Below, in pieces: positions 18,494-50,742 of a stretch of DNA of 64,000 nt. The notes under the pieces were generated by a model, which saw nothing but the letters and a program-made list of their open reading frames with translations, was not told the origin of the DNA and made no database searches. Made by a program: the position numbers and the translations under genes. The stretch is taken from assembly GCA_023229365.1 (NCBI GenBank), contig JALNZK010000002.1, positions 190,343 to 254,342 on the forward strand. The letters run 5' to 3'. Origin of the DNA: Pseudomonadota bacterium. Its GTDB lineage: Bacteria > Myxococcota_A > Polyangia > JAAYKL01. Every line of letters begins with the position of its first letter. Within the stretch, counting starts at the first letter, position 1.

Positions 18494-19588
18494 TTATATT
18501 TCTGGATATTCCATAATCTTTCCTTCGAAATTTCTTAAAATAACCTTCTCTGGGGTTTGAGAGATCAAATAAGTTGGCAATATTGGAATTTTACCACCAG
18601 GAGTGTCTATCACATATTGAGGGATGGCCAAACCAGATAATCTGCCTCTTAGATGCTCCATAATCTCAATGCCCTTGGCGACCTTTGTTCGAAAGTGATT
18701 GGCACCATTCACTATATCACATTGAAATAAGTAATAAGGTCTTACCCGCATTCTGACAAGTTTGCGGCACAATTCTTCCTGAATAAACTTATCGTCATTC
18801 ACGCCTTTCAATAAAACGGATTGATTATTGACAGGGATACCATTGTCGATGAGTTTTGCACAAGCTGCTTGGGACTGGGCCGTGATTTCCCGAGGATGAT
18901 TGAAATGAGTGTTCACAAAAACTGGTTGGAAATCCTTGAGCGTTTCCACCAATTCGTCATCAATTCTCATTGGTAAAACTACTGGAACTTTGGTGCCGAT
19001 CCTGATGATTTGAACCGATTCAACAGCCCTGACTTGACTGAGAATAAATCGTATGTCATATCTGTCTAATAGCAATGGATCGCCACCAGAAAGAATCACA
19101 TCAGTTATCTCAGGGTGATTTTTAAGATACTCTTTAATATCAGCCACTTCACCATCGGTTAGATTGCAATAGAAAGGACTACCAACTGTTCTTTTTCTGG
19201 TGCAATAACGACAGTAAACACTGCATTGGGCTGTGCAAATAATGAGTGCCCTATCTCTATAACGATGCACAAGATGAGGCACCGGCATTTGTTGGTCTTC
19301 TTGGAGAGGATCATCTACGCAGCAATCTCCCGATAACTCAGCTATATCAGGAACACACATCCTATAGATAGGATCAGATGAGTTGTATTGCTCGATGAGA
19401 GAGAGATAATAAGGCGTAATAGAGAAAGGAAATGTTTGACTGGCCTCTTGAGAAATTGGCAATCCTTTTTTTGCAGCATCTCCTACTGATTGTATCCTGT
19501 TCCTAAGCTGCCACTTCCAATCATTCCATTTACCAGGAGGCTCTTCGGCAACTTCCATGTTACCGAATAAATTCGATTCATTATCCAT
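18494..19588 (-). CDS. radical SAM aminomutase, KamA/EpmB (lysine 2,3-aminomutase) family
   Basis: TAQCSVYCRYCTRKR (the KamA-type CxxxCxxC context) and ILSGGDPLLL. 364 aa, close to EpmB size. Confidence 0.6.
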   Translation of the reverse strand: MDNESNLFGNMEVAEEPPGKWNDWKWQLRNRIQSVGDAAKKGLPISQEASQTFPFSITPYYLSLIEQYNSSDPIYRMCVPDIAELSGDCCVDDPLQEDQQMPVPHLVHRYRDRALIICTAQCSVYCRYCTRKRTVGSPFYCNLTDGEVADIKEYLKNHPEITDVILSGGDPLLLDRYDIRFILSQVRAVESVQIIRIGTKVPVVLPMRIDDELVETLKDFQPVFVNTHFNHPREITAQSQAACAKLIDNGIPVNNQSVLLKGVNDDKFIQEELCRKLVRMRVRPYYLFQCDIVNGANHFRTKVAKGIEIMEHLRGRLSGLAIPQYVIDTPGGKIPILPTYLISQTPEKVILRNFEGKIMEYPEI

Positions 19589-25030: not shown

Positions 25031-25354
25031 TCATTTCTCAACAGCCTTTCTATTCGTTGAGCTATTTGTCGCATCTTCGCACTCCTTTTGGCGGTAGATT
25101 TCTACGTCATCGGGTCCATTGTAAATGATTGTATACTTCATTCCGTGAATAGTTATGGGAATTGCTTCCCCACTCTTCGGACTATCTATAACAGATCGAG
25201 ACACAGGAGCAACAGGCATATGTGTAATGGATGGCTCTTTTGATTTTCCATTGATGACAGCAAAAATGACCGGCACCAACAACGCAAGCAAAATGCCAGC
25301 AATAGTAATTACTACCAACAATTCAACTAACGTAAATGCTTTTCTACTCTTCAT
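25031..25354 (-). CDS. prepilin-type N-terminal domain protein (type IV pilin/pseudopilin-like)
   Basis: MKSRKAFTLVELLVVITIAGILLALLVP is a class III signal. Start moved to an internal Met because the ORF-track start overlaps the next gene. Confidence 0.4.
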   Translation of the reverse strand: MKSRKAFTLVELLVVITIAGILLALLVPVIFAVINGKSKEPSITHMPVAPVSRSVIDSPKSGEAIPITIHGMKYTIIYNGPDDVEIYRQKECEDATNSSTNRKAVEK

Positions 25355-25871
25355 TGGTAAACTCGTAGGTTCGGTTCCATACTGAGCCTTTGACGATCCA
25401 AACGTCATCGGGGTTATCTCGGTTACGCACAATGTAATCGCCACTGTGCCCTGTTTGACGGAATGAGCCATCAGCTTGGCGGTCGCCCCACAATGCCTTG
25501 ATGTAGAATTCGCCCGTCTCATTCAACTCAATATAACAGGCGTCTCGAATAGCCTCAGGCTTGGGCTCAAAGGTCGTCCACCCCTCTTCGTCAACATGGG
25601 TCGGAACATAAGACTTGTGGAGAGTGGCATTATCTTGCTGCCACACATCATTACAGGGTCCAAGGCAGACCATAGAATTAGCCTTGAGCATCTGAGTGCC
25701 TTCCAGAGTATCCAAGAGAAACTTGGTGATTACCCTGGGATCAGTGAGCAATGCCCTCATGGGCTTTGCCTGCAACGATTTGGTTTTCTTAGCCGTTTTG
25801 AAAGACAGACTGGATGGGTCTATTGTTTCACCCACATCTGCCGAATAGGCAGCAGCTTCAAGCTCAAGCAT
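25344..25871 (-). CDS. hypothetical protein
   Basis: 175 aa ORF. Confidence 0.35.
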   Translation of the reverse strand: MLELEAAAYSADVGETIDPSSLSFKTAKKTKSLQAKPMRALLTDPRVITKFLLDTLEGTQMLKANSMVCLGPCNDVWQQDNATLHKSYVPTHVDEEGWTTFEPKPEAIRDACYIELNETGEFYIKALWGDRQADGSFRQTGHSGDYIVRNRDNPDDVWIVKGSVWNRTYEFTNEE

Positions 25872-26474: not shown

Positions 26475-26670
26475 TGAGCTTCCTACATACGTTGATAAGC
26501 GTATTTAAAGAGGCAGAGCGGTGATACCCTCCGCAGTATTTACACTTGTAAACTGTCTGATTTTTGCAAATAGCCGCTTCTTCAGTGGTGTATCTTTTTT
26601 TGCGGCCACAAGCCCGAAGACGACGATTATTTTGTTTGGCTATTTCTGCAAAATGAGCATATTTATTCAT
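26440..26670 (-). CDS. small zinc-ribbon protein
   Basis: CKNQTVYKCKYCGGYH. Confidence 0.3.
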   Translation of the reverse strand: MNKYAHFAEIAKQNNRRLRACGRKKRYTTEEAAICKNQTVYKCKYCGGYHRSASLNTLINVCRKLNEHKQSKRQQI

Positions 26671-27575
26671 AAATCTACCATTACATCTACTCGTTGGCCG
26701 GGAAGTAAATTACAATTTTTTAAAGAGAGCCAAAATTCTCTGGTCTTTGTATCTGTTTTTTCAGAGGGCATATCAGAAAATAATACCTTTCTTCCTAAAA
26801 AAGGTGCTGCCTGAGTTACAATTGCTTTTATTGGTTGGAAATTATCAAATGTAATTTTAGCAGATTGTCCTACTTTTATTAAAGAGGCATCAAGTTCATC
26901 AACATAAGCCCTGACTCGTAATTCTGAAATATCTGCCATTATAATTAATGGCATTTGAGAGGTGGCAATTTCTCCAATTCTGGCATCTATTTTTAGAATT
27001 TTGCCATCTATTGGTGCTTCTATTTTTGTGTGGTCTAATTTTATTTGTGCCAATTGTATTTGGGATTTTGATATTTCTATTTGTGACTTGGCAACATCAA
27101 TCTCTGCCCTCAAAGAATCGTAGGAACATTTTAATATGTCCATACCCTCTTCAGACAATACTTTCTTCTTGTTTAATATAATCCCTCTTTCCAAATTCAA
27201 CTTTGCCAACTTTAGTTGTGCCTCTTTAGCCTGTAACAATCCTTTGTTTGCTAATTCCTGAACTATAGCCAACTCTTTCTCGAAAAAATATTGTCTGGCA
27301 TCTATTTCTAGTAAAACATCTCCTTTTTTTACTAATTGATTTTCCCGAACAGGAATGCTTTTTATCTGCCCGGAGATTAGGACACACAAATATGTGTTCT
27401 CCGTTTTTCCTTCGATTCTGCCTGAAGCAAAAACACATTGTTTTTGTGGTAGCGGCGGTCTCACAATAGCAGGGCTGCTATTGTGATCTATTAAAAATGC
27501 TATACCTAATATGACGCCAATACATAAAACAAAAAAAGCAATTATTTTACCACGCATGGTCAATAATTCATCCAA
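26667..27575 (-). CDS. HlyD-family membrane-fusion (periplasmic adaptor) protein
   Basis: N-terminal TM segment, long coiled coil, and beta-barrel region IEAPIDGKILKIDARIGE. Confidence 0.5.
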   Translation of the reverse strand: MDELLTMRGKIIAFFVLCIGVILGIAFLIDHNSSPAIVRPPLPQKQCVFASGRIEGKTENTYLCVLISGQIKSIPVRENQLVKKGDVLLEIDARQYFFEKELAIVQELANKGLLQAKEAQLKLAKLNLERGIILNKKKVLSEEGMDILKCSYDSLRAEIDVAKSQIEISKSQIQLAQIKLDHTKIEAPIDGKILKIDARIGEIATSQMPLIIMADISELRVRAYVDELDASLIKVGQSAKITFDNFQPIKAIVTQAAPFLGRKVLFSDMPSEKTDTKTREFWLSLKNCNLLPGQRVDVMVDL

Positions 27576-29477: not shown

Positions 29478-30002
29478 TTACTTCCAAACCCCCCTGTGGT
29501 TTTTCTGAGCTTCTTTTTGAGCAGCGGCAAAATCTTTTCGATTTACCGTGGTTTTTGCCAATCCTGCTCGCAATTGTTCTATGCAGCAATTGTTACCGTT
29601 TTCAGCATAGACAATACCAGCATACCTTCCCCAGCTTTCAAGGACTTCGACTCGCACATCATCATTGGGAGAAACAATTTTAGAAAGATTTTCTTGAGCC
29701 TGTTTGCCAACTGTAGGAGGTATTTCGAGACCATAGAGATACAAATCACTTTCTCTACGGCCAAACAATCCAGCCCTCACAGTTAGATGATTGCCTCCCT
29801 CTACACTCACAACTGCTTCTGTGCCAATAAGTGTTTCTTCTTTGTGTCTGCTAAAAATGCGATTAGAACAAGCGGCCCACCCCAAGATGAAGCAGAAAAT
29901 GTATGGAAAGGATTTTCTGGCATAAGGATAAACGAATTTTACAAATGACCAGCACCAGCCAGCGATTGTAAGAACTAGATTGACAATAGATACCCAACCC
30001 AT
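29478..30002 (-). CDS. membrane-anchored SNase (thermonuclease)-like protein, paralog 1
   Basis: N-terminal TM. C-terminal WGRYAGIVYAENG...CIEQLRAGLAKT...AAQKEAQKNHRGVWK is the SNase C-terminal signature. Confidence 0.45.
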   Translation of the reverse strand: MGWVSIVNLVLTIAGWCWSFVKFVYPYARKSFPYIFCFILGWAACSNRIFSRHKEETLIGTEAVVSVEGGNHLTVRAGLFGRRESDLYLYGLEIPPTVGKQAQENLSKIVSPNDDVRVEVLESWGRYAGIVYAENGNNCCIEQLRAGLAKTTVNRKDFAAAQKEAQKNHRGVWK

Positions 30003-30195: not shown

Positions 30196-30414
30196 TCAGC
30201 CCCCTTTCGCTTGCCAATAAAAAGCAATCAGCGTACAAACACCAGTTGCAACAGCTATAACAGGCAACAGAAGGACAGCACAACCCGATAATACTGTTAG
30301 GGTTACAATAAAATCCTTGTCCTGCTTTTGTTTTTGTTTAAAATACCACCAAAGATAGGTAGTAACCAAACAAATAACCAATGATACGATTCCTACGCCT
30401 TGGAGCATCGTCAT
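30196..30414 (-). CDS. small membrane protein
   Basis: 72 aa with two hydrophobic helices. Confidence 0.3.
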   Translation of the reverse strand: MTMLQGVGIVSLVICLVTTYLWWYFKQKQKQDKDFIVTLTVLSGCAVLLLPVIAVATGVCTLIAFYWQAKGG

Positions 30415-31046
30415 TTAGCACCCCCTTCTTCTGTTTCCTTAGTTTTCTTTTTTGCCCAAATACCTCTGTGTGCTTTTTGGGCTTCTTTTTGGGCTGCTAA
30501 GAGTGCGTTATTATCTTTCTCCACAGAGACTTTGGCCAATCCAGCTTTCAATTGTTCCAAACAACAATTCTCGCCACTCTTAGAATATGGCAATCCTGAA
30601 ATATCTCCAAATTTATCCTCTACCCACCCTTCAGCACCTTCTTTAATTTCCACACGAATTTCATCATCAGCAGAAATTAATTGTTCCAAATTAACTTTTG
30701 CTTCTTTTTCCACCTCTGCCGGTATGGATATTCCCCAAAGCGTACAATTTTTGGTTCGCCGTGAACGATCACGTATTCCAGCTTTTAACTTGATAACATT
30801 ACCACTATCTACAGTGACAACAACCTCAGTTTTTGTCACTGTTTTTCCAAAAAACTTATCAATAGTGTTCCTGATTTTATGGCAACCCCACATCCCAAAA
30901 AGCAAACTGGCCAGGGAGATTAGAATTGGTGCCAACACCAACAGGGATATAAATTGTTTTTGAGCCCTTCTTCGCTTATAATCCCAAACTGCCCAACCAA
31001 CTAGAAAGGCAATAAACAAAAGAACTAAAACGTCATAAATACTCAT
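30411..31046 (-). CDS. membrane-anchored SNase-like protein, paralog 2
   Basis: GISIPAEVEKEAK...CLEQLKAGLAKV...AAQKEAQKAHRGIWAK, paralogous to 29478..30002. Confidence 0.45.
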   Translation of the reverse strand: MSIYDVLVLLFIAFLVGWAVWDYKRRRAQKQFISLLVLAPILISLASLLFGMWGCHKIRNTIDKFFGKTVTKTEVVVTVDSGNVIKLKAGIRDRSRRTKNCTLWGISIPAEVEKEAKVNLEQLISADDEIRVEIKEGAEGWVEDKFGDISGLPYSKSGENCCLEQLKAGLAKVSVEKDNNALLAAQKEAQKAHRGIWAKKKTKETEEGGAK

Positions 31047-31393
31047 TACCAGCCTCCTTCCGACCTTATTTGTGATTTCAAAATCACTGTTTCTGGGCTA
31101 CAGCGATCTGTTAAATTTCGACCATACAAACTGAACAACAAAGCGGCGGCGTCTTCGCCAAAATCACGAAAATCATTGAACATAATGGTGTAAAATTCAG
31201 TTTCAAAAGTGTTTTTAGCATCCAATAACTTGGTGTTCTTTTGAATTTCTTTCACCATTTCGTCTCTGCCATCCCACTCAAACAGCGATTTTACAGCCTC
31301 ATCTGGCAGATATTCCTTATCGGATAATATCTGCCAGATGATCGTAAAACTTGCTGAGCTTGAATTAGACACAAAGCCTGTTCTAATTTTCAT
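31046..31393 (-). CDS. MKxRxGFVSNSS-leader family protein, member 1
   Basis: N-terminus MKIRTGFVSNSSSASFTI. Variable acidic C-terminal part. Confidence 0.5.
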   Translation of the reverse strand: MKIRTGFVSNSSSASFTIIWQILSDKEYLPDEAVKSLFEWDGRDEMVKEIQKNTKLLDAKNTFETEFYTIMFNDFRDFGEDAAALLFSLYGRNLTDRCSPETVILKSQIRSEGGW

Positions 31394-31767
31394 TAATAAT
31401 CTTCTTCCTGATAGTATGTATCCTTTTGTTTGCGAACTTTACTGATATACTCCCCGATTAGCTCGCCAGCAAAATATGTGATATCTTCAGCGAATTCAAG
31501 CTTTTCAGATGCATCAAATGCTGCCTGTAAAGCTTTTGCTTTAAACATATCAGCTATCCACTCATCGCCACCCTCGCCAGAAATGTAATTGAGTACAATG
31601 GCATCTTGTCCCAATACTTTTCTTTTTTTCAAGCCACTATAGCCTGACATTGCCTTGGCTTTTAATTCGCCAAGTTTTTCAAGTGCCGCTGCGTGGCTAG
31701 TTGGGGTAGTAATAACCAAAAAACTTGTCGTACTGCTGTTGGACACAAATCCTGTTCTAAATTTCAT
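31393..31767 (-). CDS. MKxRxGFVSNSS-leader family protein, member 2
   Basis: N-terminus MKFRTGFVSNSSTTSFLV. Confidence 0.5.
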   Translation of the reverse strand: MKFRTGFVSNSSTTSFLVITTPTSHAAALEKLGELKAKAMSGYSGLKKRKVLGQDAIVLNYISGEGGDEWIADMFKAKALQAAFDASEKLEFAEDITYFAGELIGEYISKVRKQKDTYYQEEDY

Positions 31768-31776
31768 GATATTCTC

Positions 31777-32136
31777 CTAATCGTGATAGGCTTCTTGATG
31801 AGTTTCACATTCAACTTTCTTGCCGCACATTTTTTCCACAAGGGCTTCTACACGATCTTTGAATTGTCTACCTGTTTCATTATCGTCCACGTCGCTCCAA
31901 GACTTTCCAATATAACAAGGCCAGTCACTATCAGGATGGTGATATTCTAGTCCTAATTCTTGAGTTTTCTTTTCCAAAATTTCATAAAGCTCATCACCAT
32001 AATCATCTTCGTCGTAATTTTCTTCCTGATCCTTGTTCAGAAACATAGCCTCCAAAACATCGCAATCTATGGCTGCACCATAAATACAAAAACTGCTGGT
32101 TGAACTGTTAGACACAAATCCCATTCGTAATTTCAT
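31777..32136 (-). CDS. MKxRxGFVSNSS-leader family protein, member 3
   Basis: N-terminus MKLRMGFVSNSSTSSFCIYG. C-terminus CGKKVECETH is paralogous to member 4. Confidence 0.5.
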   Translation of the reverse strand: MKLRMGFVSNSSTSSFCIYGAAIDCDVLEAMFLNKDQEENYDEDDYGDELYEILEKKTQELGLEYHHPDSDWPCYIGKSWSDVDDNETGRQFKDRVEALVEKMCGKKVECETHQEAYHD

Positions 32137-32151
32137 TTTAATTATCCTTGT

Positions 32152-32448
32152 TTAACCATTATACCAAGCGTCTATATGAGTTGCACATGCAACTTTTTTA
32201 CCGCATAAGTTTTCTATAAGGGCTTCGACACGGGCTTTAAATTGATTTCCTGTTTCATCGCCACCAATATCTGCCCAACATAATCCGACATAATAATTAT
32301 CATATGGTCGATAACATTCAAGCCCAGCTTCTTCCGCTGCTGCGTAGACATCATCATCCTCGGGCAAATCTTTTTTGTCTACCCTGGCACCATAAATGCA
32401 AAAACTGCTCGTAGAGCTATTGGATACAAACCCCATTCGTAATTTCAT
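32152..32448 (-). CDS. MKxRxGFVSNSS-leader family protein, member 4
   Basis: N-terminus MKLRMGFVSNSSTSSFCIYG. C-terminus CGKKVACATH. Confidence 0.5.
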   Translation of the reverse strand: MKLRMGFVSNSSTSSFCIYGARVDKKDLPEDDDVYAAAEEAGLECYRPYDNYYVGLCWADIGGDETGNQFKARVEALIENLCGKKVACATHIDAWYNG

Positions 32449-32768
32449 TTTTGTTTCTCCACTTTCATTTTTGTTTCCACCCCATCTCCTATCGAAGTAT
32501 GGGTGATGGTTAAATATTTTGGATGATAGTAAATTTTGTTTACAACCCCTAATTTTAAATTAATGGGAATATTGTAATAACAACGTAGTTTGGTAATGCG
32601 GCCATCATCAAAATAAAAAAACACTGCTGTGACTGAGTTATCCTCAGGCACACACTGTATTTTTTCTAATTTGCCTTCGCACATCGAGTCTTCGGTTATT
32701 GATGGCGAAACGCTACCCGATTTGCAACCAACTAATAGCACAAGAGCCAAAAGACTAAATCTCCACAT
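32445..32768 (-). CDS. putative lipoprotein
   Basis: MWRFSLLALVLLVGC lipobox. Confidence 0.4.
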   Translation of the reverse strand: MWRFSLLALVLLVGCKSGSVSPSITEDSMCEGKLEKIQCVPEDNSVTAVFFYFDDGRITKLRCYYNIPINLKLGVVNKIYYHPKYLTITHTSIGDGVETKMKVEKQK

Positions 32769-33870
32769 TTTGACTATCCTTACATGCTGTTACATTAAAT
32801 ACCGGACATGATCTGCATTGTTTAACAAATTTACAATTACAACCACAAGAGGATGTTGTAATTGTTGCTCGCCATTGAATGGCCTTTTTGGCAAACCACA
32901 CATCTTTGAGAAAGTCTTGACAATTTAATACATCAAGACCTTCTTCCCATCCTTTTTCGCCTTCGCAGAAAGAGCAAGCAAAATATTTCCCTTCACAATT
33001 GATATATGAGGAAAAGAGCCCCGATTCACACGGCTCAGCCAGGATAAGCATTTGTTCTTCATCAGCTTGTCCTTCTACAGTTTTGAAAAACAAAGGGGCG
33101 GAACAGGAATCGAACCCCGCACCAACACCCTTGTCTTTGGAGTAAGCAATTAACTTTTTGTATTTTTTGACTGTTGAAATAGGATGAAATGCGTCAGTAT
33201 TATGACCCTTGGGCTTATATTGCAGATAAACTATGGCATTGACTTTTTTAAGCCGAGGATCAGAAGCAACATCATCAATAATATTAAATGCTTTTTCCCA
33301 TGTTTCTTCTGACAACATGAAGTGAATGTTTACTGCATTAAGTGTGTTTCCAGGTTTGCCAATTTCATCAGTGAATAATTTTATAGCATCATAGCTTTTT
33401 TCTTTATTCACAATGCTAACAGCTAAGGCTCCACAAAGTCTACCGGCAAGCTCAGCAACCACAGGCGTTACATCTTGTCCTGATGTGGTAAAATTGGGAA
33501 TTATTCCTTTGCTTCTAGCATACATTGCCATTTTAAAGAAGTCAGGATTGCTATGCATATCGCATAACCCAAAAGCAATTTGCGTGAGGACTTTCGGCAT
33601 TTTGTCCAAAATAATTTTGAACTGCTCGAAAGTCATATTGACTTCTTCTTCATTGGGGCCGTTTCGCTTATAACAGAATTTGCAGCCGCTTTTGCACTTG
33701 CCAGAAGAAATCTCCAAATCTAAAATTTCTGGACCATAGGGCGAAAAAGCAGGATCATCATCTAAGTTAGTGCCCCATCTTACAAACAATCCATTTTCTT
33801 TATGGAAGGTATAGTTATACCCTGAAGAACGCACCATTTTCATCTTAACCGTGTCTTTAATCTGCATCAT
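32755..33870 (-). CDS. radical SAM enzyme with C-terminal Cys-rich (SPASM/twitch-like) domain
   Basis: CKSGCKFCY (CxxxCxxC) near the N-terminus. C-terminus has CEGKYFACSFCEG...CGCNCKFVKQCRSCPVFNVTAC. Confidence 0.55.
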   Translation of the reverse strand: MMQIKDTVKMKMVRSSGYNYTFHKENGLFVRWGTNLDDDPAFSPYGPEILDLEISSGKCKSGCKFCYKRNGPNEEEVNMTFEQFKIILDKMPKVLTQIAFGLCDMHSNPDFFKMAMYARSKGIIPNFTTSGQDVTPVVAELAGRLCGALAVSIVNKEKSYDAIKLFTDEIGKPGNTLNAVNIHFMLSEETWEKAFNIIDDVASDPRLKKVNAIVYLQYKPKGHNTDAFHPISTVKKYKKLIAYSKDKGVGAGFDSCSAPLFFKTVEGQADEEQMLILAEPCESGLFSSYINCEGKYFACSFCEGEKGWEEGLDVLNCQDFLKDVWFAKKAIQWRATITTSSCGCNCKFVKQCRSCPVFNVTACKDSQNVEI

Positions 33871-36623: not shown

Positions 36624-37238
36624 TTGATGAATCGACTTATCTTTATTATAATTATACTGAATCAGATATTAATGGCAACTCTTGTTCATTGCAAAAGATA
36701 TCCTGTGCCGGAAAGTTTTATGATACAAAACTTCCCCACCATTACACAACCAGATGATATTTCTTGTGGACCCACAAGTTGTGTAATGGTTGCTGAATAT
36801 TATGGCAAAAAACTAACGGTTGTAGAAGCAAAAAAACTCGGGAAAACTATCTGGGGAACATATAAAGGAAAAGAAATAGGCATGACATCTCCAGATTATG
36901 TTCCTGTTATTTTGCAAAAAGTGGGTTTATCTATCACGTTAGAAAAAGGTAATCTAAATAAATTGCAGCATTATGTCTCCCTCAATAAGCCAATTATGGT
37001 GCTTGTGCGTACTGGGGATAAATTTTGGCATTATGTAGTAGTTATTGGCTATAATCAAGATAAAATCTTTATTTCTGACCCTGGTTTTGGCGAAATTTAC
37101 AGCATATCGAATAAAGATTTCTTGTCCGCATGGAGTTTTTCTGGTACTTTGCGTGGCGAAAAAATACCAACAAATTTGTATGGAATGATAGTAGAATGGG
37201 CAGATGTTAAAGGAAATTTAATGTTTGTCCCTAAATAA
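36624..37238 (+). CDS. papain-like C39-family cysteine peptidase with signal/TM N-terminus
   Basis: QPDDISCGPTSCVMVAEYYG (compare C39 Qx5CGxAxLxM), WHYVVVIGYN (His) and IFISDPGFG (Asp). Confidence 0.45.
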   Translation: MMNRLIFIIIILNQILMATLVHCKRYPVPESFMIQNFPTITQPDDISCGPTSCVMVAEYYGKKLTVVEAKKLGKTIWGTYKGKEIGMTSPDYVPVILQKVGLSITLEKGNLNKLQHYVSLNKPIMVLVRTGDKFWHYVVVIGYNQDKIFISDPGFGEIYSISNKDFLSAWSFSGTLRGEKIPTNLYGMIVEWADVKGNLMFVPK

Positions 37239-37986
37239 TAATATGAATTTCAAACAATGGCTAGAATCAGTAGGAATTATAGGCTCTGTACCCGAAGCTT
37301 TAAGCACTTTGGGGCTAAAACCAGGGGCATCTAAAGAAGAAATTGCAAAAGCATTTAGAGCAATGTCTATGCGACACCATTCTGATGTAGGCGGCTCTGA
37401 TACTATACAAAAACGACTTAATGCTGCATTTGACCTGTTAAAGAGTCGTGATTTTCAGACGGCTGGCGGTAGAGGACCAGAGTGGAATCCACCTGAACCT
37501 CCTAGATGGGATGGAAGCAATGGGCCGGGAGCACGTTGGGCTGCTTATCAACAAAGAAGAAATAATGATTTGCCACCTTGGCAAACAGACGAAAGATCAT
37601 CTAATAACTCAGTTGGCGGCAGTCGCAAAAACATTAATTATTGCTTGAAGGAAATATATGAAAAAGCAATGGAAAATGGCGGCAATGTTAAAAAATATAC
37701 TTTTGACGCTTTTGATGGAAGATTTTTCAGAGGAATATTCACTGCTTATTGCAACCCACAAACATTAGGCTTTGCTGGCGAAGTAATGGATGATTGGAAT
37801 AGTAAGGGAGCTAATTCATACGAAACTTATGCGGTACTAGCATCAAGAGACAATTCTGCACTTCTTGTTCGGTTACGAGGAAAAGATGTGTCAAATATGC
37901 ATATGGGCTGGGAATTTTCCAATGAAGATAGAAATAGTGAGCATTGGAGAAGAGAATTTAAAAAAGAATTAGATGAAATTCAATAG
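37225..37986 (+). CDS. J-domain-like protein with degenerate HSD tripeptide
   Basis: KEEIAKAFRAMSMRHHSDVGGS resembles a DnaJ J-domain but HPD is replaced by HSD. Confidence 0.35.
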   Translation: MSLNNNMNFKQWLESVGIIGSVPEALSTLGLKPGASKEEIAKAFRAMSMRHHSDVGGSDTIQKRLNAAFDLLKSRDFQTAGGRGPEWNPPEPPRWDGSNGPGARWAAYQQRRNNDLPPWQTDERSSNNSVGGSRKNINYCLKEIYEKAMENGGNVKKYTFDAFDGRFFRGIFTAYCNPQTLGFAGEVMDDWNSKGANSYETYAVLASRDNSALLVRLRGKDVSNMHMGWEFSNEDRNSEHWRREFKKELDEIQ

Positions 37987-39564: not shown

Positions 39565-39885
39565 TTACACTTTAAAGGATAGCTCGCTGCCTGGACTCGC
39601 TTCATCGATCTCTATAACCCTATAATTACATATGCCCGAGACCAAATAGCCTATTACAGCTTGTTGTCGGCTATCAAGTTGTCTTTTCAAATCAGCAATG
39701 TCATCCAACATTTGGTCAGGACAGTCTCCAAAATCAGCAAACTCTTCCGCCATTTGAACCACTAAATCAATGCATTTCTTATATGGTTTTGGACCTTTTT
39801 TACAAGGTGTTTTGATTGCTGTTTTTTTCTTTGGTGTTTTTTTCACTGATGTTTTTTTATTCATAATTTTCCTTATTTTTAACAT
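39565..39885 (-). CDS. hypothetical basic/acidic bipartite protein
   Basis: 106 aa. Lys-rich N-terminus. Confidence 0.3.
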   Translation of the reverse strand: MLKIRKIMNKKTSVKKTPKKKTAIKTPCKKGPKPYKKCIDLVVQMAEEFADFGDCPDQMLDDIADLKRQLDSRQQAVIGYLVSGICNYRVIEIDEASPGSELSFKV

Positions 39886-40325
39886 GCATATTCTCCTGTG
39901 AAAAAATCTGCCTCCCTTCCAAAGAGAGCCATCATTTTTTCATTCACTTCTTTAAGCTCATCTAATCGATTCACAGCAGCCCTTTTGCCGCCTCGTCCTT
40001 TTAGATTATTACCTATATAGACACCATCACCCAAATCCGTTTCAGAATACAACACCCAACCAAGCTCATTGAGTTTTTCTTCTCTTTCTTCATAGTCGGG
40101 GGCTTTGTGTCCACGTACTGTGCGATACGACTTTACGCCACACTCAGGACAGAATTTCATATTGCCCCGATTAAATTCATGTTTGCAATTGGGCACCTGT
40201 GTGTCGGGTTCTGGTTTGAAATCGGGAAACAAAACTTTGGTTAACTCATCCCAAGTAGTTTGCACCCCAAAAATAGAAAAAGAACTGCTACTGCTGTTAG
40301 ACACAAATCCCAAACGAACTTTCAT
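39879..40325 (-). CDS. MKxRxGFVSNSS-leader family protein, member 5 (with zinc ribbon)
   Basis: N-terminus MKVRLGFVSNSSSSSFSIFG, then CKHEFNRGNMKFCPECG. Confidence 0.5.
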   Translation of the reverse strand: MKVRLGFVSNSSSSSFSIFGVQTTWDELTKVLFPDFKPEPDTQVPNCKHEFNRGNMKFCPECGVKSYRTVRGHKAPDYEEREEKLNELGWVLYSETDLGDGVYIGNNLKGRGGKRAAVNRLDELKEVNEKMMALFGREADFFTGEYAC

Positions 40326-40727: not shown

Positions 40728-41099
40728 TTATTGTCGTTCTTTGGGGTGAGTTTTGGATTTTAAAGTTACAATAATAGCTCCTAAATTCCAATCATTTTCC
40801 ACCGCATAAGAAAAATTATGTCGATCTAGCACATCTTTGACTAATTGCTGCATTATTGGGCTGTTGCCCGTTATTATCCGAGCAGGCAGATTTTTGAGAA
40901 AAACAAAATTCTCAACCAATCTGTCTACTTGATGATGCCTAACACTATGTAGGTCTAATTCATCCATAGCGGAGACTAAAGGAATCGAACCTTCACCGGG
41001 GTTTAAGCCGGGCTTGTTTTCGAAACAAGTGCGACAAAGCCAATATTCGCCTAATCTCCATTTTTTGTCAATTCGTTCCAAGAACCAATTCTTTTCCAA
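40728..41099 (-). CDS. hypothetical protein
   Basis: 123 aa. Confidence 0.3.
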   Translation of the reverse strand: MEKNWFLERIDKKWRLGEYWLCRTCFENKPGLNPGEGSIPLVSAMDELDLHSVRHHQVDRLVENFVFLKNLPARIITGNSPIMQQLVKDVLDRHNFSYAVENDWNLGAIIVTLKSKTHPKERQ

Positions 41100-41497
41100 T
41101 GAACACTGCCTTTGGAAAGTTTATTGAAAAACGCCTGTGTTATACAAACCTCACAATTTTGTATAAACATCTCTCCTTCTTCTGCTTTTAAAGGATCGTT
41201 CCATCTATTTCCATCAAACAGAGCTATTAGAACAAAAGTCTCACTGGCCACCTGTGCCAGTATCCAATAGCCATGTTCATTATGAAATATATCACCACTT
41301 TTATACATCATTGGTGGTAATCTACAGAGCGTTGGTTTGCCCAAGGGAATTTCAGCACAGGGATTTTGCACTTTGGATCGAACCTTTGGTTCCAATGGAA
41401 TTTCACTGTAATAGTCCCAATTACGATTCTGTCCATATTGTTCTTCCAACCACTTATTATAGCATTCTTCGTCTTCAATGTATGGATTGGAATACAT
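41051..41497 (-). CDS. hypothetical protein
   Basis: 148 aa. Confidence 0.3.
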   Translation of the reverse strand: MYSNPYIEDEECYNKWLEEQYGQNRNWDYYSEIPLEPKVRSKVQNPCAEIPLGKPTLCRLPPMMYKSGDIFHNEHGYWILAQVASETFVLIALFDGNRWNDPLKAEEGEMFIQNCEVCITQAFFNKLSKGSVHWKRIGSWNELTKNGD

Positions 41498-41499
41498 GC

Positions 41500-42117
41500 T
41501 TATTTTTTCACAAATGAGAAACCAGCAAGGTCTTCATTTTGGCTTTCTCTGTCTTGGTCGAAACCATGAAAAAGATGATCCAATATTGCTTTGCTGTCTA
41601 CCAATCCACAATGCTTGTAATGTACCACTTTCTCTCCACCATGTCGCACCACAACAATTATTGCTTTGATTCTAATGAGCCAATCTACCACATGCTTATA
41701 AAGCAATGCATCCATTCCCTTATCTGTCATTTCTTCTATTGTTAGTAATTCGTATTCCTTATAATAACCACGAGGGGTTATGATAAAACCACAACGATCA
41801 GGACGGAGGTTGGCTGCTAATTTCTTGTTTCGTAGCCATGTGCATTTATAATCTCTGCACAACTGGGGACGGGTTTCATAACAATCACAACCCCCACCCT
41901 CTCTTATGTATGCACACATTGCTTTTGCAGGTTTGTCCCCTTGTTCAAAAAGAAAACAACAGGCATAACAATCACCACAACTATGTGGACGATCTCGAAA
42001 TAATTGCTGCTTTTTATTCCGCTCAGCAGCTTTCTTTTTCTTTTTTTCTAGCTTTTTATTCATAGTGCCCAGGACAGGAGTCGAACCTGCACGGGATTGC
42101 TCCCGCCAGCCCCTCAA
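41500..42117 (-). CDS. Cys-rich hypothetical protein
   Basis: CGDCYACCF...CDCY...CTW. Confidence 0.35.
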   Translation of the reverse strand: MRGWREQSRAGSTPVLGTMNKKLEKKKKKAAERNKKQQLFRDRPHSCGDCYACCFLFEQGDKPAKAMCAYIREGGGCDCYETRPQLCRDYKCTWLRNKKLAANLRPDRCGFIITPRGYYKEYELLTIEEMTDKGMDALLYKHVVDWLIRIKAIIVVVRHGGEKVVHYKHCGLVDSKAILDHLFHGFDQDRESQNEDLAGFSFVKK

Positions 42118-42148
42118 GCTGGTGCGGCTGCCATTTCGCCACCTGGGC
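42066..42148 (-). tRNA. tRNA-Leu (anticodon GAG), class II
   Basis: Hand fold: acceptor gcccagg/cctgggc, anticodon loop ttGAGgg, long variable arm, T-loop GGTTCGACTCC, discriminator A. Confidence 0.6.
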
Positions 42149-42769
42149 TTACAAATGTTGCTTATCTATCCAACCCCTGCTTTTTCTTCCTTTGCCACGA
42201 TTTCTTCCAGCGAAGGTAGGCAATTGCATATCGCAGTTACCACAAACCAACCTTACATTTTCTAATCTATGGTCTTCGGGATCGCCGTTGATGTGATCCA
42301 AAATAAGCGGGATAGGTTTTCCCATCCATTCGCTATTATTGCAGATTTCACATTGCCTTCCTCTAGTTTCAGCTAAATACTTTTTCGCCATGCTCGGATT
42401 ATATCCGTAACCACAATTGGTTGGCAACAAAGCATTACTACTCTCGATCAATTCCTTCTTTTTCTTCCATTTCGATTCATTATTGCAGGCGTAGGAACAG
42501 TATTTTTTGTTCGTGGTTAAAGAGCCACAATTTAAACACTTGCAAAGTACCGGGCTTTGGGTGTTCCTCGCCACTCCTTTGTTGTTGAAGCTTGCCGAAC
42601 AGCCACTACTACAGAAGTCATTCCTTCTTTTCTCATACGCTATTGTGAGTCCACAATTTTTACATAATTTAGGCTTCAGCAAGTACCGATCAAGGCATCT
42701 TTTGTGCTTTTCTCGCTGATAATGTCTGTTTTTTAATCCGCCTAATCTTCCACATTCGCTTTTATTCAT
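42149..42769 (-). CDS. HNH endonuclease with N-terminal zinc-ribbon repeats
   Basis: ILDHINGDPEDHRLENVRLVCGNCDMQ (HNH). CKNCGLTIAYEKRRNDFCSSGC and CLNCGS...YCSYAC modules. Confidence 0.55.
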   Translation of the reverse strand: MNKSECGRLGGLKNRHYQREKHKRCLDRYLLKPKLCKNCGLTIAYEKRRNDFCSSGCSASFNNKGVARNTQSPVLCKCLNCGSLTTNKKYCSYACNNESKWKKKKELIESSNALLPTNCGYGYNPSMAKKYLAETRGRQCEICNNSEWMGKPIPLILDHINGDPEDHRLENVRLVCGNCDMQLPTFAGRNRGKGRKSRGWIDKQHL

Positions 42770-42927
42770 TGCTACCTCTGTTTCTTGAAAATAATTATAA
42801 GATTATATAGTAATCCTACATTCATTTTTCGAGAAACAAATTTGGCAAGAGCTACTTATTGGAATTACACCAATGCCTTCGCATTACGAGTGCGATATAC
42901 TGCTGACTATACGAAAGTAGCATAAGC

Positions 42928-43013
42928 GGAAGGTGTGGGAGTCGAACCCACAAGGCTTTTTACACTCGTCCGCTTTCCAAGCGGGTGCCGTCGCCAATCG
43001 GCTAGACCTTCCT
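42928..43013 (-). tRNA. tRNA-Ser (GGA), class II
   Basis: Acceptor ggaaggt/accttcc, anticodon loop ttGGAaa, long variable arm, T-loop GGTTCGACTCC. Confidence 0.55.
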
Positions 43014-43319
43014 TTTAAACAACTCTGGATTTTCTGCTACAATGCGTTTTGTTTCTTCGTGACGCAACCGCCAATCCTCTTCTTCCTGGGCCATATCACG
43101 AATCAACTGCCCAGTAGCCAGAAATTTGTCCACACAATCATCACAGATGCCGAAAATAAATCGTTCTAAATCATGTCTCGACCCATAGCCAGCCATGAAA
43201 CCATCCACGTTAGCATCATCCCAGCAACTGCTTTGCGGCGTGCCATCCGACGTTTCGGGGTAGGGTTGCAATTGCTTGCAACAGCCTATACAGAGGATTT
43301 TAACATCTTTTGCCTTCAT
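43002..43319 (-). CDS. Cys-rich small protein (start trimmed to an internal Met to clear the tRNA)
   Basis: MKAKDVKILCIGCCKQ...CDDCVDKF. The ORF-track N-terminus overlaps tRNA-Ser(UGA). Confidence 0.35.
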   Translation of the reverse strand: MKAKDVKILCIGCCKQLQPYPETSDGTPQSSCWDDANVDGFMAGYGSRHDLERFIFGICDDCVDKFLATGQLIRDMAQEEEDWRLRHEETKRIVAENPELFKRKV

Positions 43320-43331
43320 TACAATCTCCAG

Positions 43332-43414
43332 CGGAAGCGACAGGATTCGAACCTGCAACCCGTCTTAGGGGCAACGGTTTTCAAGACCGCCCGCTAACCA
43401 TTCGCCTCGCTTCC
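43332..43414 (-). tRNA. tRNA-Ser (UGA), class II
   Basis: Acceptor ggaagcg/cgcttcc, anticodon loop ctTGAaa, long variable arm, T-loop GGTTCGAATCC. Confidence 0.55.
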
Positions 43415-43680
43415 TAATGAGCCTCAAATCCCTTCTTCTCAATATCCTGTTTAATTTGTTCTATTACCTTAGTTCTGTTCACATAAGATTGGATCACGTA
43501 TTGTCTGCCACTTGATGTAGTCAATTCGTTTGTTTCCTCATCAAAAACTTTAGGTGTAGAAACAAACACCGATTTTCCATCTTCAAAATTAGGATGCCCA
43601 TAGACTTGCCCAGATAGCCTCCAAACATCCATCCCACAACCTAATTCCATTTCGTATTTTGCATTTTCTAATATAACCAT
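43414..43680 (-). CDS. hypothetical small protein
   Basis: 88 aa. Confidence 0.3.
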   Translation of the reverse strand: MVILENAKYEMELGCGMDVWRLSGQVYGHPNFEDGKSVFVSTPKVFDEETNELTTSSGRQYVIQSYVNRTKVIEQIKQDIEKKGFEAH

Positions 43681-44105
43681 TAAAAATTTCCTTCTGTCAT
43701 GGCTTTGACAAATGCTTTTGCCATCACCATCCCGCCAGTTGTGGGAACAAATCTCGCAATTGGTGAATAAAAATCAGGATTGTTGGAAAAATGTGGATCA
43801 ATACTACCTTGTGCCAATAAATCCGCCACTGTTCCCTCAGCATAGACCAAGATTTTTACACCCTCAAAGTTTGTGCAATCAGGATATTTAATCCTGACAA
43901 TCAAAAATTCTCCAATTTGTTCCGAATATAAAATCTCAAAATTCTTTGGATTAGGATTCGGAAATTTCTTTTTTGCCTTCCTCCTCCCCTGTGTTTGCAC
44001 CTGACAAGTCTCTGGTGATTGCTGCTGGTTACAATTGCAATATACAACCGTTGGCTTATCGTATGAAGAAGAACTGCCACCAAAACCAAGTCCCATGATT
44101 AGCAT
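43680..44105 (-). CDS. hypothetical protein
   Basis: 141 aa. Confidence 0.3.
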   Translation of the reverse strand: MLIMGLGFGGSSSSYDKPTVVYCNCNQQQSPETCQVQTQGRRKAKKKFPNPNPKNFEILYSEQIGEFLIVRIKYPDCTNFEGVKILVYAEGTVADLLAQGSIDPHFSNNPDFYSPIARFVPTTGGMVMAKAFVKAMTEGNF

Positions 44106-45523
44106 GCCTCCTTTTGTAATTTAGCATCCCTGCGAGCTTTCTTTAATCTATTCGAACAACTTACAGAGCAGGTTTCGTGAGTTGCTTTGCGTTTGGTGTA
44201 CACTTTTTTACACACCAAACAACGAGCCGTTTTTTTTGCCACTGAAGCTTTGAAACATTCTTGGCTGCAAAATCTTGATTGGGCTTTTGTTCTTGCATGA
44301 AACTTTTGACGACAAAATTCACAACAGTAAATTGGCCACGATTGTTTTCGACATTCTTCACTGCAATACTTGGCACCATTTGATTGTTTGGAAAGAATCT
44401 TAAATATATTGCCACAAATTTTGCATTTCTTTTTTGTCAAAAGTCCTTTTGCCGATGCCTCTACATTCTCTTTCTTTAACTGTTGGATTTTATAATAATC
44501 AGTGTTCCAACACTTTTTACTGCAATACATTTGTGTGGCATAATTTACGCCAAATTCTTTTTTGCAACAAATGCAAATTCTTTTGTTTTTTCCACGTTTT
44601 CTGTGTTTTTCTGCCCACCAAGCATTACAACATTTTTTTGAGCAAAATAATGAAATATAGGATTTTGGCTTAAATATATTCCCACAATTCTTGCAGGGAC
44701 GTGGATTCAGCAGTTCTGGGAACTTTCGCCTCACCAAGCTTTTGCATTTTACACTACAATATATCTTTCTAGAGGTTGGTACATCAAACACGTTTCCACA
44801 AATACATATCCTGCGTTGCTCTAGCCACCGCAACACTTTTTTCAAACGTATGCGAATTGCTTCTTTGGTTAGTCCTAATTCATCGCCTATCTCTTTAAGG
44901 GTCATTCTGCGACCCTTCAAACCGTAATATCGAAAAAGGACATCTCTGTATTTTTTAGGTATTTGTTTACGACGCACTAAAGACAACACTTCGTCAACCT
45001 GTTTTGCAACTTCGCTTTGTTGTCCTCTGTTAATATTATCAATTGGCTCTAAGGTTTTGTCTTCTTCAATACAACAACTAAAAGACCCAACAGTTTTTAC
45101 TTTATTTATTTGTTGAAGAAGGGCTTCGTCTTTTGAAGATATTTCTTCTTTATCTTGAGATAGCCGAAATGCTCTTTTGTTTGCCCATTGCGGGATATAA
45201 ATAATTTTTTTCTGAGCACGGGCATCATTTATAGCATGTTCAACCGCTGTGCTGACATAAGTTGACAGCTTTGCTGTGATTCCATCCCAATGATCTACAG
45301 CACGACATATGGCTATGCTGGCTTCTGTTAAAAACTCATCATCTATTTCTTTGCCCTTACAGGCGTCTCTTACTTTGCTAAACGCTAGACGCAAACAAGA
45401 TTCGATGAGCTTGTGTCTTGCTTCTTGGTTGCCTGCCTTTGCTTTTGGAAGCAATTCCAAACACTCTTGATGACTTAGTATTTTGACATGTTTTAAATCA
45501 TTTAAATAAGCATCAATATCCAC
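44099..45523 (-). CDS. sigma-70-family sigma factor with C-terminal zinc-ribbon repeat extension; start uncertain
   Basis: VLFRYYGLKGRRMTLKEIGDELGLTKEAIRIRLKKVLRWL (region 4 HTH), region 2-like KLIESCLRLAFSKVRD, then about 200 aa of CxxCGNxF...YCSxKC repeats. The ORF-track start at 45619 overlaps a tRNA, and no ATG lies downstream of it. The first in-frame alternative is a GTG at 45523 (V of FIVDID), used here as the proposed start. Confidence 0.55.
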   Translation of the reverse strand: MDIDAYLNDLKHVKILSHQECLELLPKAKAGNQEARHKLIESCLRLAFSKVRDACKGKEIDDEFLTEASIAICRAVDHWDGITAKLSTYVSTAVEHAINDARAQKKIIYIPQWANKRAFRLSQDKEEISSKDEALLQQINKVKTVGSFSCCIEEDKTLEPIDNINRGQQSEVAKQVDEVLSLVRRKQIPKKYRDVLFRYYGLKGRRMTLKEIGDELGLTKEAIRIRLKKVLRWLEQRRICICGNVFDVPTSRKIYCSVKCKSLVRRKFPELLNPRPCKNCGNIFKPKSYISLFCSKKCCNAWWAEKHRKRGKNKRICICCKKEFGVNYATQMYCSKKCWNTDYYKIQQLKKENVEASAKGLLTKKKCKICGNIFKILSKQSNGAKYCSEECRKQSWPIYCCEFCRQKFHARTKAQSRFCSQECFKASVAKKTARCLVCKKVYTKRKATHETCSVSCSNRLKKARRDAKLQKEAC

Positions 45524-45558
45524 AATAAACTTCCTTGTGTTTGTATCATCTTGCAGAG

Positions 45559-45634
45559 TAGCACCAGGGGGATTCGAACCCACCACTACCCAGTGTTTAA
45601 AACTGGTGACTTCTGCCAATTGGTCTATGGTGCC
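45559..45634 (-). tRNA. class I tRNA-like gene, anticodon UAA (Leu-type anticodon, short variable arm)
   Basis: Hand fold: acceptor ggcacca/tggtgct with G1-U72, D-loop aattggcag, anticodon arm ccagt-ttTAAac-actgg, T-loop GGTTCGAATCC, discriminator A. Confidence 0.45.
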
Positions 45635-45639
45635 ATGAG

Positions 45640-45713
45640 TAGCGAGGAGGGGATTCGAACCCCTACTGTCTGGTTCCTAAGACCAGTGCCGCTGCCAATT
45701 GGGCTACCTCGCC
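45640..45713 (-). tRNA. class I tRNA-like gene, anticodon UAG (Leu-type anticodon, short variable arm)
   Basis: Anticodon arm ctggt-ctTAGga-accag. Backbone identical to the gene at 47763..47836 except the anticodon arm. Confidence 0.45.
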
Positions 45714-45715
45714 AT

Positions 45716-46033
45716 TTATGATTGTTCTATATCCTGAACATCAACTCTTTTCCTAAGTTCTTTGAAAATTTCGTGTGCAGCTTCTTTTCCAGTTGTTGCA
45801 GCATCAAGCTTCTTTATCAATTCTGTTGTGCCTAATTTCCACACAGCATATTCTTCATCGGTTTCACAGAGTATTAAATTCAGTTTACCAAACCGAACTA
45901 CAGTCGAATGAGGATTGTCAGACAACCTTCGTAACGATTGTGCTGTTCCTGTGTTGACTCGGATAACAAGGTCTACATCTGAGTTTGCGTTTGGCTTGCC
46001 GTAAGCTCTACTGCCCGTAATAAATGCGTTCAT
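45716..46033 (-). CDS. minimal nucleotidyltransferase (MNT/MntA-like)
   Basis: GSRAYGKPNANSDVDLVI (GSxxxGxxxxxSDxDL Pol-beta NTase motif). Confidence 0.5.
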   Translation of the reverse strand: MNAFITGSRAYGKPNANSDVDLVIRVNTGTAQSLRRLSDNPHSTVVRFGKLNLILCETDEEYAVWKLGTTELIKKLDAATTGKEAAHEIFKELRKRVDVQDIEQS

Positions 46034-46311
46034 TTTTTTACCTTGTCATCGTTCACTGGCCAATGCTTTCTGCCTTCTGAAACATGCTCTAATGCTTCTC
46101 GGATTATTTCAGGTGATTCCTCAATCTCAACAAAAGCCCACCCTGGCGGGCAATTGCCTACATTTTTCTTGGGAGATACCATCACCCCCAAGTGTTCGCC
46201 ACAAGTTGCTAGCCCGCCACCAATCGATTTGAGAAATTCCGCATAACTGAGATTATCTGGAACTTCCAAATCATTCCCATGTTCATCCTTGCGACCAATG
46301 ACTTTCATTTT
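46030..46311 (-). CDS. small protein overlapping the MNT gene by 4 nt; possible HEPN-like partner
   Basis: Contains REALEH (an Rx4H motif). Start trimmed to internal MKVIGRK to avoid the tRNA overlap. Weak call. Confidence 0.25.
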   Translation of the reverse strand, partial: KMKVIGRKDEHGNDLEVPDNLSYAEFLKSIGGGLATCGEHLGVMVSPKKNVGNCPPGWAFVEIEESPEIIREALEHVSEGRKHWPVNDDKVKK

Positions 46312-50271: not shown

Positions 50272-50742
50272 TTATCCATTTTTTATTTTTGCCCAGTTTA
50301 CAAACTGTTCAAAGACCCATTGCATGGTGCCTTTGCTCACAAGTTCTGTTTGTTTACCCTCATCAGTTTGCCTAAATTCCTCCACATCTTTTTCCAACCT
50401 TTCAAGATAATCTTTTTTCATTCCTTCCAACATCATTGGCAGCACAATTTCATCCATCATCAAGCCACCAGGGCTTTCATCCCATTCGACTTTATCCATT
50501 GGAACGCCGATTTTTTCCAAAAAGGCTTCCATATCAAAGTTATCCATCCATGTTTCGCCGCCAATCATTTCATCATTACTGCGAATCGTCCAGGCATCTT
50601 CCTCAGCCCAAGACATACCCATTTCTTTTCCAATAATTGCGTGGTCTGCAATCTTGCCTATTTGATCTTCGGACAAATATTTTTTTAGGATAGCGAAGCT
50701 TGAGCTTGAGCTATTGGACACAAATGTAGTTCTTATTTTCAT
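50272..50742 (-). CDS. MKxRxGFVSNSS-leader family protein, member 6
   Basis: N-terminus MKIRTTFVSNSSSSSFAIL. Acidic C-terminal part. Confidence 0.5.
   Translation of the reverse strand: MKIRTTFVSNSSSSSFAILKKYLSEDQIGKIADHAIIGKEMGMSWAEEDAWTIRSNDEMIGGETWMDNFDMEAFLEKIGVPMDKVEWDESPGGLMMDEIVLPMMLEGMKKDYLERLEKDVEEFRQTDEGKQTELVSKGTMQWVFEQFVNWAKIKNG

Follow-up and report, generated by a model that had tools for sequence, protein, structure and literature searches.

Six open reading frames (ORFs) in a 64,000-nucleotide stretch of contig JALNZK010000002.1 (positions 190,343 to 254,342 of the forward strand; hereafter the window) begin with the same short sequence, here called the tag, and four of them share an operon with a gene for a radical S-adenosylmethionine (radical-SAM) enzyme of the SPASM/twitch type. 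The window is part of a 340,072-bp phage-like contig (locus tags M0R80_02525 and M0R80_02610). Tag and enzyme are genomically coupled across hundreds of phages. Our reading, to which we give a probability of about 0.6, is that they form a two-component phage module in which the enzyme recognises and modifies the N-terminal tag of diversified small acidic proteins. A wider proposal is put forward more tentatively, at slightly below even odds: that this is an unrecognised protein-tagging system of large phages, in which a viral radical-SAM enzyme would modify a universal 16-residue tag on more than 10,000 clusters of acidic effectors, up to 15 of them per genome, by new chemistry on an Asn-Ser-Ser core.

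The N-terminal tag and the proteins that carry it

The original prediction had placed six tagged ORFs in the window, and our scan agrees with it in every coordinate. All are on the minus strand and each starts with MK[ILVF]R[TML][GT]FVSNSS[ST][STA]SF. Proteins of 98 amino acids (aa; 32152..32448), 119 aa (31777..32136), 124 aa (31393..31767) and 115 aa (31046..31393) are encoded in tandem. Two more genes stand apart, one for 148 aa about 6 kb off the operon (39879..40325) and one for 156 aa about 16 kb off it (50272..50742). A six-frame scan of the window revealed no further in-frame FVSNSS. The tandem genes lie, also as predicted, behind the radical-SAM ORF (32755-33870) and an ORF of 107 aa with the lipobox LLVGC (32445..32768, minus strand), which is located between enzyme and tagged genes and had no family match in Pfam, PHROGs or NCBIfam. 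Together they form one compact operon on the same strand, with junctions ranging from a 14-nt overlap to a 15-nt gap.

The C-terminal parts had been described as unrelated. This is correct for four of the six proteins, which diverge past about residue 18, and incorrect for those encoded at 32152-32448 and 31777-32136. The latter are paralogues with 58% identity and belong to a large family of about 115 aa conserved over its full length, which we call the canonical family (…YVGxxWxxIGGDETGNQFKxRVE…C.T…W; cluster 1 in a BLAST clustering). The C-terminal part encoded at 31393-31767 was a singleton in this clustering, and the product of 31046-31393 fell into a small family (cluster 13) and has metagenome relatives that are 70-71% identical. 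The protein encoded at 39879-40325 contains a zinc-ribbon-like CxxC…CxxC insert with weak zinc-ribbon matches, and the one at 50272-50742 has the commonest C-terminal family of all (cluster 0), found in 26 enzyme loci.

The tag is not a chance match, nor is it peculiar to this contig. A profile built from the six window proteins matched 1109 proteins in a database of 5.8 billion sequences, and 10,479 representatives of 50%-identity clusters from public metagenomes (E ≤ 1e-3 for the cluster count). The profile matches listed were all about 95-190 aa long, and these relatives had no Pfam domain and bore no name beyond 'hypothetical protein'. For a closer view of conservation, 272 unique tagged ORFs were gathered from related loci with a pattern that fixed F7, N10 and S12. 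Among them K2 was conserved in 95%, R4 in 96%, G6 in 96%, F7 in 100%, V8 in 95%, S9 in 99%, and N10, S11 and S12 in 100% each, followed by S13 (88%), S14 (75%), S15 (94%) and F16 (97%). The 100% at F7, N10 and S12 is partly by construction; the N10-S11-S12 core still remained unchanged in a relaxed position-weight scan. The consensus is M-K-x-R-x-G-F-V-S-N-S-S-S-S-S-F, after which come two beta-branched or hydrophobic residues, and nothing is conserved past residue 18 in the 272 ORFs. In 95% of them a Met stands exactly 6 residues ahead of F7. The tag always occupies the extreme N-terminus.

What follows the tag is highly diverse. Tagged proteins range from 42 to 300 aa in length (median 130 aa). 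When the tag was removed they fell into at least 81 BLAST clusters, 53 of which are singletons, and several recurrent families occurred in 18-26 loci each. None of 68 representatives contained a Pfam domain. The acidic character noted for the window proteins extends to their relatives, 92% of the 272 having a negative net charge (median -8). The original prediction had recognised the motif from no described family, and this stands: Pfam, NCBIfam and a PDB sequence search gave nothing significant, and PHROGs gave only the function-less phrog_7397, which all six proteins match at positions 1-18 (up to 1-37). That family, RB16p111-like and of 'unknown function', covers only one of the C-terminal families counted above. 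Full-text literature searches, which included the motif string, phage radical SAM, RB43/RB16/KP15/KP27 and phage RiPP maturases (RiPPs being peptides that are made on ribosomes and modified after translation), yielded no paper that describes the tag or connects it with the enzyme.

Conservation at the level of DNA or RNA, as in a recombination site or a translational element, can be ruled out as the origin of the tag. Each of its serine positions uses both AGY and TCN codons, its arginine uses AGA as well as CGN, and only a generic Shine-Dalgarno signal precedes the tagged ORFs. Because synonymous codons vary freely, selection must act on the peptide.

For one tagged protein (31777-32136) a structure was predicted with AlphaFold2 (AF2) from an alignment of 88 sequences, with a mean predicted local distance difference test score (pLDDT) of 77. 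The model shows a beta-alpha-beta-beta-alpha-beta domain that starts at residue 14, strand 1 comprising residues 14-23, and no significant structural neighbour was found for it. Tag residues 1-3 and 5-12 have pLDDT values below 50, though this is the most conserved part of the protein. We take the tag in this model to be a flexible tail that precedes strand 1.

The radical-SAM enzyme and its coupling to the tag

The enzyme is encoded on the minus strand (32755..33870, 371 aa) and belongs to phrog_7293, a family of 'unknown function' (E 9e-91). Pfam Radical_SAM was matched with E 1.6e-4 and 22.3 bits, under the curated cut-off of 29.5, there was no Pfam SPASM match, and the best NCBIfam match reached 32 bits against a cut-off of 380, the weak matches being SPASM maturases. 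Because the curated profiles stay under threshold, membership in the SPASM/twitch group rests on motifs and fold. More than 1040 homologues were found, some of them labelled 'AslB' by the Joint Genome Institute (JGI). In 120 homologues the CX3CX2C motif (C59/C63/C66) is conserved in 99-100%. The auxiliary-cluster cysteines C256, C281 and C299 are conserved in 100% and C355 in 99%, and the hairpin C281-X12-G294-X4-C299 fits the CX9-15GX4C pattern of auxiliary [4Fe-4S] clusters. Four further cysteines, C344/C346/C352/C363, possibly form a second auxiliary cluster; they occur in only about 50% of homologues and their spacing differs from the canonical CX2CX5CX3C.

The AF2 model of the enzyme (pLDDT 96, predicted template modelling score 0.93) consists of an N-terminal four-strand beta meander (residues 3-32), the radical-SAM barrel and a C-terminal cluster domain. 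The extra N-terminal beta domain is the most conserved region of the enzyme outside the clusters. A winged-helix domain of the RiPP recognition element (RRE) type is absent, residues 1-55 of the model being four beta strands without a helix. In a Foldseek comparison with the PDB the model matched TigE (8e-11), SuiB (2e-10, TMq 0.71), anSME (5e-9, 4k39), SkfB (6e-9), CteB (9e-9) and PqqE (1e-6). By its predicted structure the enzyme groups with the SPASM/twitch radical-SAM enzymes that modify peptides and proteins. A sequence search of the PDB found only the C-terminus of BtrN (E 0.009).

Two more specific identities were considered and rejected. Cyclopropyl synthases of the TigE type are defined by a Gly-Tyr-Trp motif whose Tyr ligates auxiliary cluster I (PMC10878394), and GYW was present in none of the 120 homologues, which speaks against a TigE/TvgB-like enzyme. 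A glycyl-radical protein with its activase was suggested by the likeness of R-x-G-F in the tag to RVxG[FYW]. Here all four tagged ORFs of one locus (L057) have Ser in place of G6, the spacing of the Arg is off, PFL-AE appears only at rank 30 as a distant fold match, and the enzyme is of a type other than the activases.

The coupling was surveyed in 78 IMG/VR loci centred on enzyme homologues. These had to be retrieved with an alignment of homologues, since a search with the single enzyme sequence gave none, and several are near-duplicates, so that counts are slightly inflated. With a strict pattern (F[VIL]SNSS within 8 residues of the Met of an ORF) at least one tagged ORF was found within 10 kb of the enzyme in 71 of the 78 loci, 3.8 per locus on average and 15 at most. 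Nearly all are on the strand of the enzyme, mostly downstream of it and often within 300 bp. The position-weight scan raised the number to 75 loci, and 4 of the 7 seemingly 'empty' loci hold variant tags or alternative start codons. When all ORFs of 80 loci were clustered, the enzyme was present in 80, tagged proteins in 76 and the next-commonest family in 12; tagged proteins are thus the only gene family conserved with the enzyme. Pfam upholds the HlyD-like protein (26667-27575) and the C39-like peptidase (36624-37238) that the original prediction had named as also present. As parts of a module these two genes and the lipoprotein gene have to be dropped, none being conserved with the enzyme across the 80 loci.

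On each of two large contigs (309 and 288 kb) eight tagged genes stand in tandem behind the enzyme gene. The 309-kb contig also has genes for a Ro60/TROVE-vWA protein (11554-13197) and a Thg1-like enzyme (18656-19426) nearby. Three other enzyme loci (L044, L047 and L053) possess two radical-SAM-family ORFs each. Starting from the tagged family, the enzyme was found within 10 kb in 40 of 76 loci, and several more loci are on contigs with the enzyme farther off (contig names matched by eye). Among 185,579 GTDB species genomes the enzyme occurred on only 12 contigs, all from metagenome-assembled genomes (MAGs) of scattered phyla, with tagged ORFs on 10 of the 12. These MAG contigs are probably viral. 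Four of them are binned as Heimdallarchaeota (L163-L165, L170) and another archaea-binned locus is assigned to Thermoplasmatales (L169). Tagged ORFs are present in four of these five, with variants such as GFVSNSSTYSY. The archaea-binned loci are either mis-binned viral contigs or archaeal viruses carrying the module.

Some genomes possess a variant of the tag, and in each case all paralogues share it. The core reads GHVSNSS (F7H) in L019/L020, [GS]LVSNSS (F7L, with G6S) in L057 and L084, which are on one contig, GWVGNSS (F7W and S9G) in L168, and GFVANSS (S9A) in L100/L101. Paralogues sharing one variant belong to different C-terminal families and differ at synonymous sites, which excludes recent gene conversion as the source of the variants; over the shared tag residues, overall codon identity reaches 0.47 inside a locus against 0.42 from one locus to another. 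Because all copies in a genome change together, they appear to answer to a single genome-encoded reader. The replaceable positions are G6, F7 and S9, and those never replaced in these variants are K2, R4, V8 (Val or Ile), N10, S11 and S12. A cyclophane centred on Phe7 is made unlikely by the F7L variant, and Ser9 as an obligate modified residue by S9G and S9A. The enzyme of the F7H phage (L019/L020) is the only one with Q97S, a substitution at the otherwise invariant Gln97. It may mark a contact between enzyme and tag; being a single case it is too thin to use, and we mention it as a lead only.

The module is also present in cultured phages. Enzymes 44-46% identical to that of the window occur in 172 GenBank phages, which are T4-like and infect Escherichia (RB16), Klebsiella (KP27), Enterobacter, Cronobacter (GAP161) and Citrobacter (CfP1, Margaery); their annotation is at best 'radical SAM protein'. 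A scan of the complete RB16 genome gave one enzyme (RB16p156) and exactly two tagged ORFs, RB16p111, which starts MKIRSGFVSNSSSSSFIVRF…, and RB16p106, which starts MKIRSGFVSNSSSSSFIIGI…. Both lie about 20 kb from the enzyme gene, in a block of small ORFs. Homologues of the two tagged proteins were found in 175 and 174 phages of GenBank, among them RB43, KP15 and Citrobacter phage Miller, and their distribution over genera is that of the enzyme. A tblastn search of GenBank phages with the canonical tagged family gave no match; cultured phages carry other C-terminal families.

Possible roles of tag and enzyme

A link between the tag and the adjacent radical-SAM/SPASM enzyme had been suggested in the original prediction as part of a RiPP-like system. 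The link itself is borne out by the coupling across loci, by the tagged proteins being the sole family conserved with the enzyme, by the RB16-like phages and by the shared variants. The RiPP-like part is not: the peptidase, adaptor and lipoprotein genes are not conserved, the enzyme has no RRE, and the partners, at a median of 130 aa, are folded proteins and not short peptides. For this last reason the tag is more likely a site of modification than a cleavable RiPP leader.

How such a module might work can be sketched as follows. The phage's own radical-SAM enzyme would bind the tag tail, which might add as a strand to the conserved all-beta domain at the enzyme's N-terminus, and the 5'-deoxyadenosyl radical would abstract a hydrogen within the tag, leading to a post-translational modification. 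Asn10-Ser11-Ser12, which never vary, would be the most probable site, with Val8 as the alternative. A lysine at position 2 should cause Met1 to be retained, given the specificity of methionine aminopeptidase. Since Met1 is likely kept and the distance to the terminus is fixed, the enzyme may also read the free N-terminal end. The actual work would fall to the variable C-terminal domains, probably early-expressed effectors of host takeover or anti-defence, and their activity, stability or location would depend on modification of the tag. The binding, the modification, its chemistry and the roles of the tagged proteins are what we infer from the pattern of genes and sequences described above.

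Several observations weigh against this reading. Binding and modification are argued from the association of the two partners. Near-duplicates are found among the IMG/VR loci, and about half of the loci collected from the tagged family have no enzyme within 10 kb. Phage genomes with tags and no enzyme may exist, the census having covered flanking stretches. The co-occurrence in cultured phages lies within one clade; it is phylogenetically confounded and counts as a single evolutionary observation, and in RB16 the enzyme gene and the tagged genes stand 20 kb apart. The enzyme lacks an RRE, which is the usual leader-binding domain. Finally, similar short motifs recur at the ends of many C-terminal families (…G[TS]xx[CS], …SHH, …W.DG), so the tagged proteins may be one very divergent fold with a structural N-terminal segment, and because the AF2 model is that of a monomer, any order of the tail in an oligomer lies outside it.

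The last of these points leads to a structural explanation, in which the tag would be an N-terminal hairpin or Ser-rich loop of one divergent superfamily, binding for example phosphate, a nucleotide or a metal, and the enzyme would make the bound small molecule or cofactor. The residues F-[IV]-[IV] behind the tag form strand 1 of the predicted domain, the common end motifs would fit a common architecture, and most tagged proteins are joined when single-linkage clustering is run on alignments of 40 residues or more. Small molecules are the substrates of twitch enzymes like BtrN, the weak match noted above. However, the tag is predicted to be disordered, no fold neighbour with such a loop was found, and the exact spacing to Met1 would be unusual for a binding loop. 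A universal small ligand would also not switch F7 to His, Leu or Trp in all paralogues together, and we regard this explanation as unlikely. The evidence from coupling and co-variation could also be accommodated if the tag were a docking peptide and the tagged proteins adaptors, not substrates, whose variable domains recruit varied host or phage targets (proteins, nucleic acids or metabolites) to the enzyme. Many different domains with one handle would then make sense, and the conserved extra N-terminal beta domain of the enzyme could hold that handle. Yet every one of the closest folds is that of a maturase whose target is the bound peptide itself, and an N10-S11-S12 core that is invariant while positions 6, 7 and 9 change fits a reaction site better than a docking strand. 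For adaptor partners of SPASM/twitch enzymes we know of no precedent, the peptides or proteins known to partner with these enzymes being substrates, and we consider adaptors improbable too.

Two further explanations rank lower. The first suggestion of the original prediction was that the tag directs proteins into the prohead and is removed there by the prohead protease, like the targeting sequence of T4 internal proteins. In both cases a short N-terminal sequence is common to several small acidic phage proteins, and the module is found in T4-like phages, which encode the gp21 protease. The sequences, however, are unrelated, and no residue that could belong to a cleavage motif is conserved after position 18. 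The x-x-E tripeptides taken as a possible protease signal reflect composition: Glu occurs at residues 25-35 in 81% of the family, as composition predicts, and [LI]xE shows no enrichment, with 34% for residues 20-40 and 29% for 60-80. There is no T4 late promoter near the tagged genes of RB16, the only TATAAATA in 33 kb lying about 10 kb off. The literature yielded no virion proteome for a module-bearing phage, the available one being from Jiaodavirus, a genus outside the enzyme matches. Capsid targeting would moreover leave the specific coupling to a radical-SAM enzyme, and not to head genes, unexplained, and we have come to think it very improbable. The same low standing applies to mere hitch-hiking, in which enzyme and tagged genes would only co-reside in a variable accessory region of large phages without a functional link. 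Both do occur among small ORFs of unknown function and they are well separated in RB16. But no other family is common to the 80 loci, whose surroundings otherwise differ, and same-strand adjacency is typical. The pairing also recurs in T4-like enterobacterial phages, in environmental phages of 200-550 kb and on contigs binned to unrelated phyla and to archaea.

Genomic setting, known systems and implications

The gene content of the contig is of the huge-phage type, with a DnaB-type helicase, a DNA polymerase, more helicases, a sigma factor and 17 tRNA genes. Arrays of tRNA genes are typical for huge phages. The array of 17 (40969-50245, minus strand; 10 Leu, 4 Ser, 2 Phe and 1 Tyr) is located between both outlying tagged genes, and a tie between its four tRNA-Ser genes and the Ser-rich tags would be speculation. 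Beside the tagged gene 50272-50742 there is an ORF of 193 aa (51061-51642, minus strand) with a signal-like N-terminus, repeats rich in Cys, Ala, Pro and Val (…KACAPAAC…) and the end CGCGK. Directly downstream of the tagged operon two paralogous membrane-anchored proteins with a staphylococcal nuclease domain are encoded (29478-30002 and 30411-31046, minus strand; Pfam SNase, E about 3e-6 and 5e-6). These nuclease genes are not conserved with the module elsewhere among the 80 enzyme loci.

A second radical-SAM ORF in the window (18494-19588, minus strand, 364 aa) is unrelated to the tag-linked enzyme and has weak PHROG matches to QueE-like proteins. The ORF 25031-25522 on the minus strand has a prepilin-type N-terminal segment (FTLVELLVVITIAGILLALLVP), which is unusual for a phage contig and may hint at the host group. 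A phage-encoded J-domain protein with a weak Pfam DnaJ match is specified at 37225-37986 on the plus strand. The first J-domain protein of a phage was described from RB43 (PMC3486835), which also carries tagged proteins.

Among described systems there is a close likeness to the RiPP maturases SuiB, CteB, SkfB and TigE. There, too, one enzyme serves many genes that have a conserved N-terminus and then diverge, and these SPASM enzymes combine a radical-SAM core with a C-terminal auxiliary-cluster domain and are the nearest structural neighbours of the phage enzyme. The prochlorosins with ProcM are another case of one maturase acting on many precursors via a conserved leader. In contrast to RiPP systems, the module has folded proteins of 42-300 aa as partners, of which only the 16-18 N-terminal residues are shared, it comes without an RRE and without a protease, exporter or other partner gene conserved in the 80 loci, its setting is viral, and the family of tagged proteins is very large. 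The anaerobic sulfatase-maturating enzyme anSME, which converts Ser or Cys of the sulfatase motif to formylglycine, is like the proposed module in that a SPASM enzyme lacking an RRE acts on a short motif of whole proteins; the tag is Ser-rich. The (C/S)-x-(P/A)-x-R motif, on the other hand, is absent from the tag, the partners have no sulfatase domain, sequence similarity is marginal, and the partners are many unrelated proteins instead of one enzyme family. Formylglycine formation on the tag would be a guess.

For neither partner do Pfam, NCBIfam, PHROGs or the PDB describe a function, and nothing in the sources searched links phrog_7293 with phrog_7397, both of which are listed in PHROGs without function. 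Bacterial RiPP pathways and sulfatase maturation are the main settings in which radical-SAM/SPASM enzymes are known to act on ribosomal products. In the phage module the same scheme, a single enzyme for many substrates with a common recognition sequence, would be viral, and applied to whole proteins via a very short, near-invariant N-terminal tag. If this is true, it would be radical-SAM maturation of folded proteins by a portable tag, distinct both from RiPP peptides and from sulfatase maturation. Its presence in RB16 and RB43, two cultured phages of E. coli, and in many phages of Klebsiella, Enterobacter, Cronobacter and Citrobacter from therapy research makes the module directly testable. 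Should the enzyme modify the tag, this would define a new post-translational modification, provide a common handle for a large block of the 'dark matter' proteins of phages and yield a compact, genetically encodable pair of enzyme and tag as a tool.

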